From Candidatus Latescibacterota bacterium (GTDB taxonomy: Bacteria > Latescibacterota > UBA2968), in the NCBI GenBank assembly GCA_965116885.1, contig OZ220741.1, forward strand, positions 3,808,001-3,872,000: a stretch of DNA of 64,000 nucleotides, given 5' to 3'. Position numbers and translations under genes: made by a program. The notes under the pieces were generated by a model that did no database searches, was not told the DNA's origin, and saw only the letters and a list, made by a program, of their open reading frames with translations. Shown in pieces: positions 40,089 to 48,100 of the stretch (position 1 is the stretch's first letter; each line of letters starts with the position of its first letter).

Positions 40089-40264
40089 GGATGGTACAGG
40101 ATGATTGGGATGAACCTTCTACATTATCCACGAAAGCGGAGTAACTCCAAAGTTTCATCTTAACTCGCTTATCGCATACCTTGTGCCGATAGCTTACGCA
40201 AAATTGCACCAAACACAGGCTTGAACCTAGGCCCTAAATACCCCACCAAAACGGGGTAACTCCA
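40089..40264. repeat. Two partial spacer elements ending in right-type ends (40125-40149, 40240-40264)
   Basis: TATCCACGAAAGCGGAGTAACTCCA and CCACCAAAACGGGGTAACTCCA; interiors resemble 41757-41806 and 48007-48100. Confidence 0.8.
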
Positions 40265-40482
40265 GCAGCACCAGTGCTCCGAGCACAATGTGGAGATCTT
40301 TACTGGGGCGCCCAAAGTCTTTGCTGAAATGGGGTGCCAGTTCCCCAACAGGTAGCTCCGAAAGCAGATACTCTCGGAAGACGCCAGCCCAGGAATGATC
40401 AAGGAGTTGCTTGCGTTTGGCCCCCAGGCTGTATCCAGAAATCCGGTGGGGACGCCGAATCGCGGTCTCGTAAGGTAAGCAT
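40265..40482 (-). pseudogene. Frameshifted N-terminal transposase fragment (IS1182/IS5-like)
   Basis: MLTLRDRDS..PDFW / LGAKRKQLLDHSWAGVFREYLLSELPVGELAPHFSKDFGRPSKDLHIVLGALVL; cut exactly at the repeat end at 40264. Confidence 0.7.
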
Positions 40483-40675
40483 AAACGAAAGATAGCTCAC
40501 CTTACCCTTCGTGACAATCTCTGACTTTTTGCCGTCCCGTCAAATGTCGTGGATGATCCAGACGCATCAACTCATAAAATCATTACGGTTCTAGCTCATT
40601 GGACTTGACCATGATTTAAAATCTACAGAATTTATAGTTGAACAAAATGAATTTACACTCTAAAGGAGGTATAAC

Positions 40676-41077
40676 ATGGCTAACATGGCCCCATTTTTCC
40701 AAGAATTTTATTCTCAACATCTTGAAGAGTATCTGGGCGGCCAAGATGGTGATACGATAAATATAGTTAATGAAGCTATTGACTATGCAGTAGATCGTTT
40801 GGAAAACCGAAAAGTGCTTCGTTCAGATGCACGGCTGTTCCTAACAATTAACCTGCACGAAATTGTCGCGATACCTTTATCTCAACAGAATTCTCCAACG
40901 AGATTGACTGCTGATATTGTAGGGGAACTCAGAGAAGATACATACAGAATCCTTCAGGCTGCTTCGTTACGCGCAGGAAATAGAGAGGAATTGGCAGCGT
41001 CACACATAGTATGGGGTTTAGCATTTGTTCTAGACGATTTAAATTTAAAGAATTGGAGATTTTGGGACCCCATATAA
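40676..41077 (+). CDS. Hypothetical helical protein, possible histone-like fold
   Basis: AAGGAGG RBS; LRSDARLFL...RILQAASLRAGNREELAASHIVWGL helix pattern. Confidence 0.6.
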   Translation: MANMAPFFQEFYSQHLEEYLGGQDGDTINIVNEAIDYAVDRLENRKVLRSDARLFLTINLHEIVAIPLSQQNSPTRLTADIVGELREDTYRILQAASLRAGNREELAASHIVWGLAFVLDDLNLKNWRFWDPI

Positions 41078-41149
41078 GAGCCATAGGAATAAGTTATGCC
41101 CCGCGATATAAACGATTAAATTTAGAGGCTTAGAGGCTTTGAGACTGCA

Positions 41150-41653
41150 ATGAATGATAAAGATACTATAAGACTTGAAATATGGAAGATGCTCTTCTCG
41201 GTCGCAATTGGCTTAATTGTAGCCTCAACAACTTTTATTGTATATGCATTCAAAAAACCGTCTCTTGGTCCAGCCTTCTGGATATTGTTCGGGATTGGCA
41301 TGGCGGCCCTTTTTATGAGTTGCATTTTGGGCAGTAAAGGGGCATCGCGTATCCCAAATCCAGGCAATTTATTCAATTTACAGGCGTTGTGTTGTGCGGC
41401 CGGATTCTTTCTTCTTGCTATCAGCTTTATCTTTTTGGCTAAACCGACAGAAAACAACACTGTAATTTCAATTATCGGGCTACCAAAAGACTCAGAGCAA
41501 GCTGGCCACATTGTCCAGATACTAGACATAGAGAAATTCTATGAGATCATTACAAGGCTCGAAGCTGTGGAGCAAGATCTGGAAGATTTGCAGAAAAAGT
41601 TCTCGAAAAAAGAAGTAGTGTTGCCTGATACAGCTACTGTATCAGGGCATTGA
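41150..41653 (+). CDS. Hypothetical membrane protein (3 TM + C-terminal coiled coil)
   Basis: Three hydrophobic segments; ITRLEAVEQDLEDLQKK heptads. Confidence 0.65.
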   Translation: MNDKDTIRLEIWKMLFSVAIGLIVASTTFIVYAFKKPSLGPAFWILFGIGMAALFMSCILGSKGASRIPNPGNLFNLQALCCAAGFFLLAISFIFLAKPTENNTVISIIGLPKDSEQAGHIVQILDIEKFYEIITRLEAVEQDLEDLQKKFSKKEVVLPDTATVSGH

Positions 41654-41699
41654 TCTATCGGATAGTCTTGATATTATGCTCTGTCGTAGCGATTTTGCT

Positions 41700-46006: not shown

Positions 46007-46084
46007 TAACAATGGTCTTTTACAATCAATACGGCGGACAATTTGTGTAAGCCGTTAATGAAAAATTTAGGCAAAATGGAGTTA

Positions 46085-46146
46085 TGGAGGTATCCCGTTT
46101 TGGTGGATCATATCATAAATCACCCATCACTTATGAAAAACTGATG
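46085..46146 (+). repeat. Half spacer element (left end only)
   Basis: TGGAGGTATCCCGTTTTGGTGGATCA...CCATCACTTATGAAAAACTGATG, homologous to 41700-41761. Confidence 0.85.
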
Positions 46147-46181
46147 TTAGTTTTTCGTCTATGGAGAGGAGAGATAAGAGT

Positions 46182-47945
46182 ATGCCTAAATTGATTACTG
46201 ATAGCCAAGATGAGCAAACACTTGAAGAGTTATTTAGGGATGCAGATCAAATTCATATCCCTATCTTCCAAAGATCTTATATCTGGAAGCAAAAGCAATT
46301 AGATGAATTACTGGGAGATATTCGATTAATTAGATCTGAAGTGGAGGAATCTCAATTTCTTGGTGCAATTGTAGCTTATGAGAGGCCACGCGACACCCAA
46401 ATTGTGGGCAGATTGAGAGCATTGGCTGTTGTTGATGGACAGCAACGGCTTCTTACACTTTATATTTTTGTTATGTGCTTAGTTGAATGTGTTGCAGGTA
46501 TCGATAAAGAGGAGGGGCTAGAGATAGTTCGCGAATTTCTCCTCCTTCCGACTCGGCGAGGGTTAGATATAAATACGCGAGTGATTCCTGCATTTTCAGA
46601 TAGAAGTCAATTCAGAGTACTTTGGGATCGCCTTAACAGTCCAGACGTCCTTCAAGGTCATTTCGCCCCCCCCCCAAACCCTCCACCTCCAAGCGGTGAG
46701 GCTGCTGGCGCACTCGTTAAACAGTATAATCGAATACTCAGATTTTTACGTAGCTCATTGCCAGAGGAAAAAAATAAAAGAATAGAATTTCTTCGCGAGA
46801 TCCTTGATATAATTACACGCCGATTGACCTTTGTTCATTTGAAACTAAACGATGCCTCTTCAGCGACCAAAATTTTTGAGAGGTTAAATTTCCGAGGTGT
46901 TAGGGTTGGGATAGTAGACCTTGTGAGAAATGAGATATTTTCTGGGACCGCAGATGATCCCACTGAAGCCCAGAGAATTTTTGATCATGTATGGCGGCCT
47001 TTCGAGACAGAATTTGAGGGAAGATCAGAGGCGTTTTTCTTTCCATATTGCCTTGTTCAAAACAGCAATATTAAAAAGTCAGAATTGTTTTCACAACTCC
47101 GAGAAACGTGGAAATCGCTAAGTCCTGAAGAGATGGTGGAACATATGAAGCCATTTCAAGGGCCCTTTATGAGCATAGACAGCACTGGTTATTACTCTGG
47201 GTGTTCCGAAATTTCGATGCGCTTAGACCGCCTTGTCAGAATGCGAAGGCCCTCATCTGTTTATCCTTATGTAATGTCCATGCTACACGCAAGAGATAAT
47301 GAAGAGATCAATGATGATCAATGTATTGATATGCTTGATGCACTTGAAACCTTTTTAGTAAGAAGGGCAATTGTTGGATTTGAACCAACTGGTCTGCATG
47401 CTCTATTCAAAGGACTCTGGGTACAACTCCCCGAACATAATTCGACAGGGTTCGTATCTATTGTTACCGAAAAACCTACGATTCAGTGGCCAAGTGATAA
47501 CGATTTGATCGAGGCAATTGAAAACCGCCCATTAGCAAGAACGCATATTTGCAATTATCTTCTTGTTGAATACGATAAAGGCCTAAAAGGTGATGACCCC
47601 ATTACTACTCCAACGATTGAGCATATATTGCCTGTGTCGTATGATACTAATAGTGAATGGTCTGATTTATTTTCTAGAGATCAACATAAAAAATTGAAAG
47701 ATACTTGGGCAAATTTAATTCCGTTATCTTCGCCCATGAACTCCTCGCTACAGGCAGATCCATATTCACAGAAACGTCCGAGATATGGAAACGAATCAAT
47801 GTTTATCACTCCGCGAGATATAGCTGACAGGTGGGAAGATTGGACGCCATATAGCATTGAGGAAAGAGCACAAATCCTTACCGCCTGGGCAATCGCACGC
47901 TGGCCACATACTCTACCTAATTCAGCAGACAACGTCGAATCTTAG
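46182..47945 (+). CDS. DUF262 + DUF1524 (GmrSD/SspE-like) nuclease
   Basis: IPIFQRSYIW, VVDGQQRL, IFERLNFRG, TIEHILP...ANL...N HNH motif. Confidence 0.88.
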   Translation: MPKLITDSQDEQTLEELFRDADQIHIPIFQRSYIWKQKQLDELLGDIRLIRSEVEESQFLGAIVAYERPRDTQIVGRLRALAVVDGQQRLLTLYIFVMCLVECVAGIDKEEGLEIVREFLLLPTRRGLDINTRVIPAFSDRSQFRVLWDRLNSPDVLQGHFAPPPNPPPPSGEAAGALVKQYNRILRFLRSSLPEEKNKRIEFLREILDIITRRLTFVHLKLNDASSATKIFERLNFRGVRVGIVDLVRNEIFSGTADDPTEAQRIFDHVWRPFETEFEGRSEAFFFPYCLVQNSNIKKSELFSQLRETWKSLSPEEMVEHMKPFQGPFMSIDSTGYYSGCSEISMRLDRLVRMRRPSSVYPYVMSMLHARDNEEINDDQCIDMLDALETFLVRRAIVGFEPTGLHALFKGLWVQLPEHNSTGFVSIVTEKPTIQWPSDNDLIEAIENRPLARTHICNYLLVEYDKGLKGDDPITTPTIEHILPVSYDTNSEWSDLFSRDQHKKLKDTWANLIPLSSPMNSSLQADPYSQKRPRYGNESMFITPRDIADRWEDWTPYSIEERAQILTAWAIARWPHTLPNSADNVES

Positions 47946-47948
47946 AAA

Positions 47949-48100
47949 TGGACTTGCCCCGTTTTGGTGGATAATTTATATAATCCTCATCGCAGACATT
48001 CTTCCATTGCCTACTATGCACCGATGGCCTGCGAAAAGCTGCATCAATCACAGGGTTGAAACACAAGCCCTACACTCTCCACCGAAGCGGGGTAACTCCA
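47949..48100. repeat. 152-bp spacer/MITE-like element with inverted ends
   Basis: TGGACTTGCCCCGTTTTGGTGGATA ... TCTCCACCGAAGCGGGGTAACTCCA; begins after a 3-bp gap from the DUF262 stop. Confidence 0.9.

Follow-up and report, generated by a model that had tools for sequence, protein, structure and literature searches.

Does a row of genes that all point the same way, each followed closely by a short foldable repeat, imply a dedicated machinery for the capture of gene cassettes? The question is raised by an island of about 9 kb and low GC content, lying between the tRNA-Pro and the tRNA-Gln genes within the 64-kb stretch of Latescibacterota DNA analysed here (the window). The earlier note on this DNA had proposed an integron-like cassette system that stockpiles anti-phage genes. 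We consider it likely that the island is an ordinary, decayed mosaic riddled with MITEs, and that the array arose from IS biology and island decay and not from dedicated cassette capture. The features of the island are collected in Table 1.

Table 1. Features of the island and its borders (positions in the window)
Feature	Position	Strand	Description
tRNA-Pro (tgg)	39276..39352	+	ARAGORN; Rfam tRNA 69.5 bits; 3' end toward island; native flank
ParB-HTH-like backbone gene	39402..39911	+	169 aa; Pfam HTH_ParB, 29 bits
Putative left attachment core TTGGTTGCCC	39448..39457	+	Exact repeat of 48422-48431; left boundary about here
Unit F	40089..40149	+	Solo right-end fragment of B-type MITE, ends ...GGAGTAACTCCA
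Unit G	40150..40264	+	G-type MITE; first 2 nt missing, internal deletion; right part = IRR end of the IS
IS1182/IS5-like DDE transposase, 5' remnant	40266..40496	-	About 72 codons; cut off at the right end of unit G
Cargo block 1	40676..41653	+	Two small ORFs, 133 and 167 aa
Unit B+C	41700..41954	+	B-type MITE with IRL-type left end; MITE X nested in right inverted repeat
MITE X in unit B+C	41807-41937		Terminal repeats ATGCTGTTGCCGAATT; second MITE, unrelated to the IS3-type
Cargo block 2	42027..42674	+	215-aa ORF, function not assigned
Unit D	42691..42843	.	Type-2 MITE: 13-19-nt IS3 tips flanking X core
Debris patch	42844..42996	+	ParB-like gene copy, then second IS3-type OrfA piece
Cargo block 3	42998..46006	+	NYN-domain protein (245 aa) and NACHT-like NTPase with pentapeptide repeats (752 aa)
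Unit E	46085..46146	+	Left 62 nt of B-type MITE; right part missing
Cargo block 4	46161..47945	+	GmrSD-type type IV restriction enzyme; Pfam GmrSD_N 93 bits, GmrSD_C 64 bits
Unit A	47949..48100	+	Complete 152-bp MITE: 30 nt IRL and last 122 nt of parent IS, including orfB end
Large serine recombinase, 3' remnant	48100..48516	+	Codons 408-546; begins exactly at the right end of unit A
tRNA-Gln (ttg)	48423..48496	-	ARAGORN; Rfam 60.2 bits; core repeat 48422-48431; 3' end toward island

The repeat units and their parent insertion sequence

The ten copies of a 25-bp end motif, described previously as confined to 40089-48100 within the window, were all recovered, with every coordinate and spacing in agreement. 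Scanning with the 25-mer (up to three mismatches) gave six matches, all within 40125-48100, with 0 expected from 100 shuffles. The 14-nt core (up to two mismatches) gave nine matches in the window against 0.67 expected, eight of them in the island; the lone match outside, at 8399, is probably due to chance. The copies at 41806 (truncated), 41954 and 42691 were recovered by a repeat search and blastn-short, and the latter detected no match of the units elsewhere in the 64 kb at E < 0.1. The interiors of the units are related as had been noticed, with pairwise identities of 76-91%: 41700-41761 and 46085-46146 are 79% alike, 47949-48100 and 40186-40264 76%, 41807-41884 and the inverse of 42748-42824 89%, and 40117-40138 and 41785-41806 91%.

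The suspected IS3-family nature of the ends was borne out. A search for a full IS with these ends succeeded in related Latescibacterota, where the motif makes up the inverted repeats at both tips of a genuine element of 1256-1257 bp with TG...CA termini and two overlapping ORFs, orfA and orfB; NCBIfam transpos_IS3 recognises its OrfB with 350 bits (cut-off 160). Twenty-two full copies, 99.8-100% identical to the copy in locus L004, are spread across one 8.08-Mb Latescibacterota chromosome, and six of the 22 are flanked by a perfect 3-bp target duplication (about 0.3 expected by chance). Genome-wide scatter with such duplications is what the earlier note had named as evidence against its own proposal, and it is the behaviour of the parent IS in a relative. 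The parent copies also lie close together: in OZ252228.1 six pairs, among the 33 copies found, are less than 10 kb apart (1.3 expected, p = 0.003) and sit amid metabolic genes, and in L003 one copy is inserted into the relic of another. Clustering is a property of the parent IS, and in another genome it is just as marked amid ordinary metabolic genes.

Judged by their sequence, the units of the window derive from this IS3-family element as non-autonomous forms (MITEs) and belong to at least three subtypes. They are 62-255 bp long, and the sole coding remnant is a 29-residue orfB tail in unit A, matching orfB residues 253-281. Unit A reads as a plain internal deletion of the parent: full IS copies are 88-89% identical to its IS3 ends and to 122 nt of its interior (87.7-89.3% for the IS ends in L066, L072 and L052), and its terminal repeats pair. 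No transposase gene of the parent IS was found in the 64-kb window. Since the units carry none, any movement would need a transposase supplied in trans; this part of the earlier proposal stands, the dedicated capture system to which it was joined does not.

Nor are the units uniform cassette sites. Over shared interiors they are mutually 76-80% alike, and they are 88-94% identical to copies in other genomes (unit F to L022:1119-1166, 94% over 48 nt; unit E to copies in L022 and L028, 88%). Some are truncated, nested or abutting and they lie amid the debris of two other ISs. Unit F directly abuts unit G (40149/40150), the full form of which is a 145-bp MITE, TGAAGTTTCATC...GGGGTAACTCCA, present in L031, L025 and L102. 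The 8-bp duplication around MITE X has decayed in the window (CCAAAGCG / CTAAAACG) and is perfect in L007, L015 and L025, and the X core of unit D is inverted relative to the X of unit C. When folded, the units form long terminal stems, with -29.1 kcal/mol (z = -4.5) for the DNA fold of unit D.

It is very improbable that an unknown recombinase takes the 25-bp motif as its site and moves cassettes of gene and site in or out. All that argues for it is the architecture, a row of co-oriented genes with a foldable repeat behind each. Against it, the motif belongs to the tips of a classical IS with a DDE transposase, and the termini read TGGAG.../...CTCCA in place of attC cores; the units are heterogeneous, truncated and nested; no integrase was found in the 51 window ORFs scanned, and the one site-specific recombinase, a serine recombinase tied to the tRNA site, is broken. 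An integron-like reading is close to refuted by these ends, units and missing integrase and attC cores.

Borders and contents of the island

At the left boundary the GC content falls from about 0.53 to 0.41-0.45. The 10-bp core repeat, with exact copies at 39448, 48422 and 59069, would act as an attachment site, and tRNA-Gln would be both the integration target and the right boundary. The sequence right of the 39448 core is common to L025, in which the ParB-like gene has a counterpart of 87% nucleotide identity (18355-18848); fragments of this gene occur in L031 and L022. At the opposite edge, adjoining the putative attachment site, a recombinase gene is present as a broken remnant, the last ~30 codons of which overlap tRNA-Gln. 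Its 34 homologues are 546-553 aa long, the best being 90% identical over 100% of the fragment. Full-length homologues combine Resolvase, Recombinase and Zn_ribbon_recom domains, and the best NCBIfam matches of a homologue, CcrB and XisF, were both under the cut-off. No other piece of the serine recombinase gene was found within the window, and because the gene is broken the island is now probably fixed in place.

The cargo ORFs are all on the + strand, and the distances from stop codon to left end (46, 16, 78 and 3 bp) are those given before. The array had been described as one of defence-type cassettes; only two of the four cargo blocks look defence-like. The GmrSD gene of block 4, matched by 33 PADLOC models, contains a C10 run at 46666-46675. 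Block 3 is a candidate defence pair on the basis of its Pfam matches (NYN, 25.6 bits; Pentapeptide_4), and its Atlas neighbours, NACHT or pentapeptide clusters with a score up to 1.00, provide a lead. No family match in Pfam, PADLOC, NCBIfam or PHROG was obtained for the ORFs of block 1 or for that of block 2, the Atlas neighbours of which are unnamed.

Wherever a right end meets coding DNA it cuts a gene (three of three cases), exactly at 40264, 42843 and 48100. The genes concerned are the IS1182-like transposase, the ParB-like/IS debris patch and the serine recombinase, respectively. Residues 23-77 of the IS1182-like stub align with residues 18-72 of 309 library matches, and five of the six matches scanned contain DUF772 and DDE_Tnp_1. 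The debris patch carries a 21-27-nt copy of positions 39831-39857 of the ParB-like gene (93%, repeat D6) and, at 42877-42945, a 23-aa fragment from the interior of a second OrfA of IS3 type, 96% and 92% identical to P0039 and P0040 (both PF01527).

For the ordinary mosaic that we favour, the following order of events and mechanism of rearrangement may be envisaged. A large serine recombinase would have inserted the island into the 3' end of tRNA-Gln, and IS3-family MITEs would have come to occupy the gaps between its genes as well as the genes that are broken. Any movement of these MITEs would be the work of an IS3 transposase (OrfAB) from a gene located elsewhere, presumably via the copy-out/paste-in route of the family. 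The pile-up of MITEs is probably due to tolerance of insertions in accessory DNA downstream of genes, to a tendency of this IS family to insert near or into its own copies, and to deletions or recombination at MITE ends that would fuse modules of different origin. Such fusion would account for the truncated genes next to right ends and for the absence of target duplications. As noted before, none of the three complete window units has a 3-bp duplication, and with three more in L022 and L028 the count is zero of six; the missing duplications weigh little because the units are old and diverged.

Orientation and module borders in related genomes

A genome scan for the elements listed at least 121 loci, none of those listed being from the genome of the window. 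Among the loci listed, MITE copies of the window families were found at at least seven loci of at least five other genomes. There they cluster in accessory and defence regions, and the tie to gene 3' ends recurs, left ends lying 4-37 bp past stop codons in L022, L031 and L015 and 3-78 bp past them in the window. No homologue of any window cargo gene was found among the 121 loci listed.

A count by hand of the oriented elements of the window and the seven loci showed that the gene on the IRL side is co-oriented with the element in 18 of 21 (binomial p = 0.0015). So clear an orientation rule asks for explanation, and it is a point against passive accumulation alone, which does not predict it. 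Selection for a regulatory role would explain both the fixed orientation and the position just past stop codons, if the MITEs were kept as terminator or stabiliser hairpins for the upstream gene or as promoter donors for the next one. The long terminal stems agree with this idea, which is compatible with either the ordinary mosaic or mobile modules. However, the stems are symmetric and hence give no account of the bias, and the region scan revealed no excess over shuffled sequence, with 24 promoters against 19.2 and nine terminators against 7.5 (observed and shuffled), none at the unit tips. We regard a regulatory role as rather improbable.

The second alternative ascribes mobility to the MITE-bounded modules themselves: a gene between two IS3-type ends would move like a mobile insertion cassette (MIC) or a composite transposon with IS3 transposase acting in trans. 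Candidates in the window are a solo end plus a MITE (46085...48100) and two direct MITEs (41700...42843). Passenger genes lie between inverted ends in both, and also at 14535...10001 of L025. In the E-GmrSD-A arrangement (46085-48100), and with the Type ISP restriction module of L025 and L031, correctly inverted ends enclose single genes with little extra DNA. The Type ISP module shares 85% identity over 3220 bp between the two genomes, in non-syntenic contexts, and is bordered in both by an F-type end (88%) and, at the opposite border, by a G-type MITE (90%). L102 and L031 have the G-MITE and its right flank in common, and their left sides diverge from 19 bp before the MITE. Each MITE of the window is of another subtype and resembles foreign copies more than the MITEs beside it, which would be expected of modules that arrived separately. 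Precedents can be cited: passages of PMC4133298 describe pairs of Tn3-derived miniature elements that mobilise the DNA between them, and targeted insertion of the IS911 kind, a known behaviour of the IS3 family, is mentioned in PMC2909936 and PMC7986276. Array growth through incoming units landing beside resident ends, with later decay of the abutted ends (seen at 40149/40150 and in L039, L031 and L003), is an unlikely component of this scheme. Mobile modules as such are likewise doubtful: target duplications flank none of the six complete MITEs or composites nor either Type ISP unit, only one shared module was found and the window cargo has no homologues among the loci listed, the ends are old and diverged, the genes truncated at the right flanks of the candidates are not resumed at their left flanks, and the window lacks a transposase. 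The orientation bias, the Type ISP module and the L102/L031 breakpoint are in keeping with ends that take an active part in module movement.

Of the integron-like proposal there survive the 3'-end tie and the accessory or defence context, both recurring in other genomes, and one shared module; its dedicated capture machinery does not. A broader generalisation, that in Latescibacterota IS3-derived miniature elements are the standard borders of accessory and defence modules, each gene having a co-oriented MITE behind it, and that these are exchanged between tRNA-targeting serine-recombinase islands, through IS3 transposase in trans with insertion beside resident ends or through recombination at the ends, would make them a transposon-based functional analogue of integron shuffling, and we give it little credence. 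If true, miniature transposon ends would offer a second way, independent of an integrase, in which anti-phage genes are assembled and swapped, and would help to explain the mosaic nature of defence islands. The decayed mosaic that we prefer exemplifies the shaping of a small defence island by IS debris, in a phylum that is uncultured and has hardly been studied, and indicates that a tidy "gene plus repeat" array can arise without dedicated cassette machinery. Perhaps more useful are two by-products, the recombinase family reading into its tRNA target and the MITE orientation rule.

Comparison with known systems

The island shares with integrons and CALINs (integrase-less attC arrays) genes in one direction, each followed by a foldable repeat, a feature not specific to integrons. 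Unlike them, the window has no IntI, attI or attC core, and its repeats are DDE-transposon ends. The absence of IntI and attC, already reported, was confirmed: no Phage_integrase-type match was obtained by Pfam in 51 window ORFs (18 + 33; outside the island, those of at least 110 aa), and no attC cores (RYYYAAC / GTTRRRY) were found at the cassette ends, where the termini TGGAS.../...SCTCCA match IS3 inverted repeats. As in CALINs, any mobility would depend on an enzyme supplied in trans, a concept set out in part of PMC11389934.

MITEs are defined, in passages of PMC9330008 and PMC11389934, as non-autonomous IS deletion derivatives moved in trans. The window units resemble IS3-derived MITEs in that they are small, lack a transposase gene and have terminal repeats matching a full IS3 element. 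They differ in having no surviving target duplications (0/6), in the joint occurrence of nested and truncated subtypes, and in their strong orientation bias and concentration in accessory islands.

With islands of large serine recombinases (SCC, Ccr) the locus has in common a fixed chromosomal site and a homologue with Resolvase, Recombinase and zinc-ribbon domains, whereas here the putative target is a tRNA 3' end, the recombinase frame runs into the tRNA and the recombinase is truncated. No internal att-like repeats indicating tandem accretion were found in the island.

MIC231 of Bacillus cereus is reportedly a mobile insertion cassette. Composite-transposon-like units built from miniature elements are represented by the Tn3-derived TIMEs (described in part of PMC4133298). 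As in MICs and TIME composites, passenger genes are bracketed here by transposase-less IS ends, and the Type ISP module occurs in two contexts; unlike in these, no flanking duplications were found, the ends are of different subtypes and partly truncated, and mobility is putative. In IS911-type targeted insertion, which belongs to the IS3 family, an element inserts next to resident IS ends. As a lead, such insertion would be expected to produce abutting ends, local clusters and a lack of duplications; each of the three was observed here and with the active IS of OZ252228.1.

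The end motif and its parent insertion sequence

The 25-mer motif that marks the ends of the short units A-G was matched six times with up to three mismatches, always within 40125-48100, against an expected 0 (100 shuffles). Allowing two mismatches, its 14-nt core gave nine matches (expected 0.67), eight of them inside the island. Repeat finding and blastn-short added the copies at 41806, 41954 and 42691, which are truncated or diverged, and no unit had a match elsewhere in the 64-kb window at E < 0.1. Both the shuffle-tested counts and the lack of outside matches uphold the earlier note: the motif is genuine and occurs nowhere in the window but in the island. 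Every similarity between unit interiors that it had listed was borne out by the same two methods, and its spacings between stop codon and left end (46, 16, 78 and 3 bp), the location of every cargo ORF on the + strand and the absence of target duplications at the flanks, an analysis uninformative for old MITEs, were reproduced.

A scan for the pattern TGGASTTRCCCCGYTTYGG in one genome per species returned at least 121 loci (L numbers), many from Latescibacterota MAGs. There the motif forms the tip of an element of 1256-1257 bp that has two overlapping ORFs; its OrfB reaches 350 bits with NCBIfam transpos_IS3 (cut-off 160). The terminal sequence is TGGACTTGACCCGTTTTGGTGG before orfA and TGGAGTT.CCCCG.TT.GGTGG next to orfB. 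Since a full IS3-family element carries these ends, the earlier guess of IS3-type termini was right.

On the 8.08-Mb chromosome OZ252228.1, at least 22 full copies were located between 1.18 and 7.67 Mb, 99.8-100% identical to the L004 copy. The near-identical, presumably recent copies of this chromosome (L001-L004, L033-L034 and others) lie in some cases only a few kb apart, and at L003 one copy is inserted into the relic of another. A perfect 3-bp duplication was seen at six of the 22 located copies (about 0.3 expected by chance) and at none of three full copies from other genomes. Plasmid relatives, annotated as 'IS3 family transposase', reached only 64-70%. The active copies of OZ252228.1 are clustered, with six pairs less than 10 kb apart versus 1.3 expected (p = 0.003; at least 33 copies), and the neighbours of the clusters are metabolic genes. 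The parent IS may often insert beside its own copies or recombine with them.

Anatomy of the units and of the island

Unit A is 87.7-89.3% identical to full IS copies in L066, L072 and L052 and still encodes residues 253-281 of orfB; it is a textbook deletion derivative of the parent. Unit G lacks the first two bases of a subtype that is intact in L031, L025 and L102, and it directly adjoins unit F. The subtype shared by units B, E and F is intact at L028:7187-7304. Identity among the window copies is only 76-80% over shared interiors; with copies from other genomes it rises to 88-94%. Recent local copying was not their origin.

Features of the island and related loci (positions without prefix refer to the window)
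Feature	Position	Strand	Description
tRNA-Pro	39276-39352	+	
ParB-HTH-like gene or pieces	39402-39911; L025:18355-18848; L031:123-260; L022:11262-11333		at edge of MITE-rich islands
Unit G	40150-40264		145-bp subtype TGAAGTTTCATC...GGGGTAACTCCA
IS1182/IS5-like transposase stub	40266-40496	-	first ~72 codons; 309 matches, five of six scanned with DUF772 + DDE_Tnp_1
Units B, E, F			left-plus-right, left-only and right-only parts, respectively, of one ~118-bp subtype
Units C, D			contain different element X
X copies	41807-41937; 42704-42824; L007:9896-10000; L015:15909-16015; L025:17209-17313		
Debris patch	42844-42996		21-27-nt copy of ParB-like gene 39831-39857, then second IS3 OrfA piece
Second IS3 OrfA piece	42877-42945	+	23 residues
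Unit A	47949-48100		30 nt of left end joined to last 122 nt of IS
Large serine recombinase remnant	48100-48516		residues 408-546 of 546-553 aa
tRNA-Gln	48423-48496	-	

Element X, about 131 bp long with terminal repeats ATGCTGTTGCCGAATT, was found in every case within an IS3-type end. An 8-bp duplication of that end surrounds it in L007 (CCGAAGCG), L015 (CGCTTCGG) and L025 (CCAAAACG) and has decayed in the window. X is accordingly a second MITE; it inserted once into an IS3 end and has been carried along with the IS3-derived MITEs since. Derivation of X from the IS256-type elements of L022 and L031 was rejected, their termini being unlike the X repeats. An Rfam scan of 39000-49000 (E <= 1) found no known RNA family among the units: apart from both tRNAs, the sole match was a trpB motif below threshold; the promoter and terminator search in the region gave nothing above shuffled sequence.

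GC content falls from about 0.53 to 0.41-0.45 between tRNA-Pro and tRNA-Gln, the 3' ends of which both point into the island. The best homologue of the serine recombinase remnant is 90% identical across the entire fragment, including the approximately 30 codons overlapping tRNA-Gln, and no further pieces of the gene were found in the window. An exact 10-bp repeat, TTGGTTGCCC, is present at 39448 and 48422. Sequence to the right of the former copy is also present in L025, where the stretch preceding the ParB-like gene is joined without a gap to 52 nt of a recombinase gene; this fusion points to recombinase - att - ParB-like gene as the order in the circle. A like design occurs at tRNA-Asn in L031. 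We infer that the region is an integrative island, about 9 kb in length, which has lost the ability to excise. The ParB-HTH-like gene, found whole or in pieces in four genomes, may be a backbone gene of this island family, with a role perhaps in excision or partition. Tandem accretion via internal att sites was rejected, as no same-strand core copy lies within the island. No plasmid matched the complete island in a megablast search.

In this recombinase family, homologues of which cover 100% of the window fragment, the reading frame closes with approximately 30 codons that run antisense through the 3' half of a tRNA gene, and a variant occurs at tRNA-Asn 12952-13027 (recombinase sequence L031:12929-13042). 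Genes for tRNAs are more usual targets of tyrosine integrases. A second lower-GC stretch of the window, 26600-30000 (0.41-0.49), holds ORFs without a Pfam match (26645-27025, 27131-27532 and 28331-29833) and no MITE ends.

The cargo had been described as anti-phage genes, and two of the four blocks between the units look defence-like. For GmrSD, matches were found to Pfam and to 33 PADLOC models; its frame contains ten successive C, encoding prolines, at 46666-46675, and a homopolymer of such length could turn the gene on and off through slippage. The NYN protein and the 752-aa NACHT-like pentapeptide-repeat NTPase form a plausible candidate defence pair, the NACHT assignment being a lead from the Atlas only. 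The three small proteins of the other two blocks had no matches in Pfam, PADLOC, NCBIfam or PHROG.

The IS1182/IS5-like stub is broken off at the right end of unit G, the debris patch begins at that of unit D and the recombinase gene is broken at that of unit A. Thus right ends 40264, 42843 and 48100 border truncated sequence whereas all four left ends follow intact genes, an asymmetry that, with three cases, is not significant; the truncations fit deletions or recombination at unit ends. A second ParB-like gene ending in the debris patch was considered and rejected, because the patch is mostly a fragment of a second IS3 OrfA and the ParB-derived part spans only 21-27 nt. Neither transposase stub had been recorded in the earlier note.

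Altogether, the heterogeneity, nesting and truncation of the units, the mixed IS debris, the broken recombinase, the lack of a recombinase or transposase and the clustering of the parent IS among housekeeping-type genes elsewhere indicate that this is probably an ordinary MITE-riddled, decaying island. The window holds no parent transposase. An integron-like system that is truly site-specific is nearly excluded, with no tyrosine integrase among the 51 window ORFs scanned and no attC-like termini at the units.

MITEs in related genomes and a possible movement of modules

Transposase-less MITE copies were found in at least seven regions of at least five other Latescibacterota genomes (L007, L015/16, L022, L025, L028, L031 and L039), mostly in lower-GC stretches; six of the seven regions have at least two separate MITE sites and L007 has one composite site. 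Among their neighbours are two Type ISP enzymes, a restriction-modification pair of HaeIII type, ThsB-TIR with SLATT, FRG, DUF4238 and PIN toxins, and also genes for LRR, WD40, pentapeptide, sulfotransferase and GroEL proteins; the MITEs thus go with accessory DNA of all sorts and not specifically with defence. In the MITE-rich island of L025 a ThsB-like TIR protein is directly followed by a SLATT/DUF4231 membrane protein (15273-16312). L007 and L031 were rejected as one chromosomal site, their PhyH neighbours being just 27% identical.

Several observations favour a composite-transposon or mobile insertion cassette (MIC)-like role, in which the ends would move modules. A Type ISP module is common to L025 and L031 (85.4% identity over 3220 bp) in non-syntenic surroundings, bordered in both by an F-type end upstream (88%) and a G-MITE downstream (90%), with an additional 1.1 kb in between in L025. 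L102 and L031 have a G-MITE and its right flank in common; on the left, their similarity stops 19 bp before the MITE. Ends abut at 40149/40150 and in L039, L031 and L003.

The gene on the left-end side was co-directed with the element in 18 of 21 oriented elements (p = 0.0015), a hand count on the map with orientation set by the asymmetric interiors and genes called by a simple ORF rule, several without family support. Unit D and two short pieces, being unorientable, were excluded; L022 737-879 and 1119-1214 have one common neighbour, and the two Type ISP/G-MITE junctions are homologous and so not independent. The exceptions were L025 10001-10147, L031 6368-6649 and L031 12779-12810. This orientation rule, too, speaks for module-moving ends. 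The process is of a known kind, demonstrated for Tn3-derived miniature elements (PMC4133298), and it would accord with the 'targeted insertion' of IS911, to which PMC2909936 and PMC7986276 refer. We consider this role unlikely. A regulatory role of the MITEs, compatible with the other readings and a possible explanation of their biased orientation, seems rather improbable.

No link between MITEs and defence islands was found in the titles and abstract openings of the literature covered, subscription journals lying outside its scope. The decaying island that we favour is made up of kinds known already: MITEs derived from IS3, possibly together with MIC- or composite-like units. They lie in an island of the tRNA-targeting serine-recombinase type, from a phylum that is uncultured.
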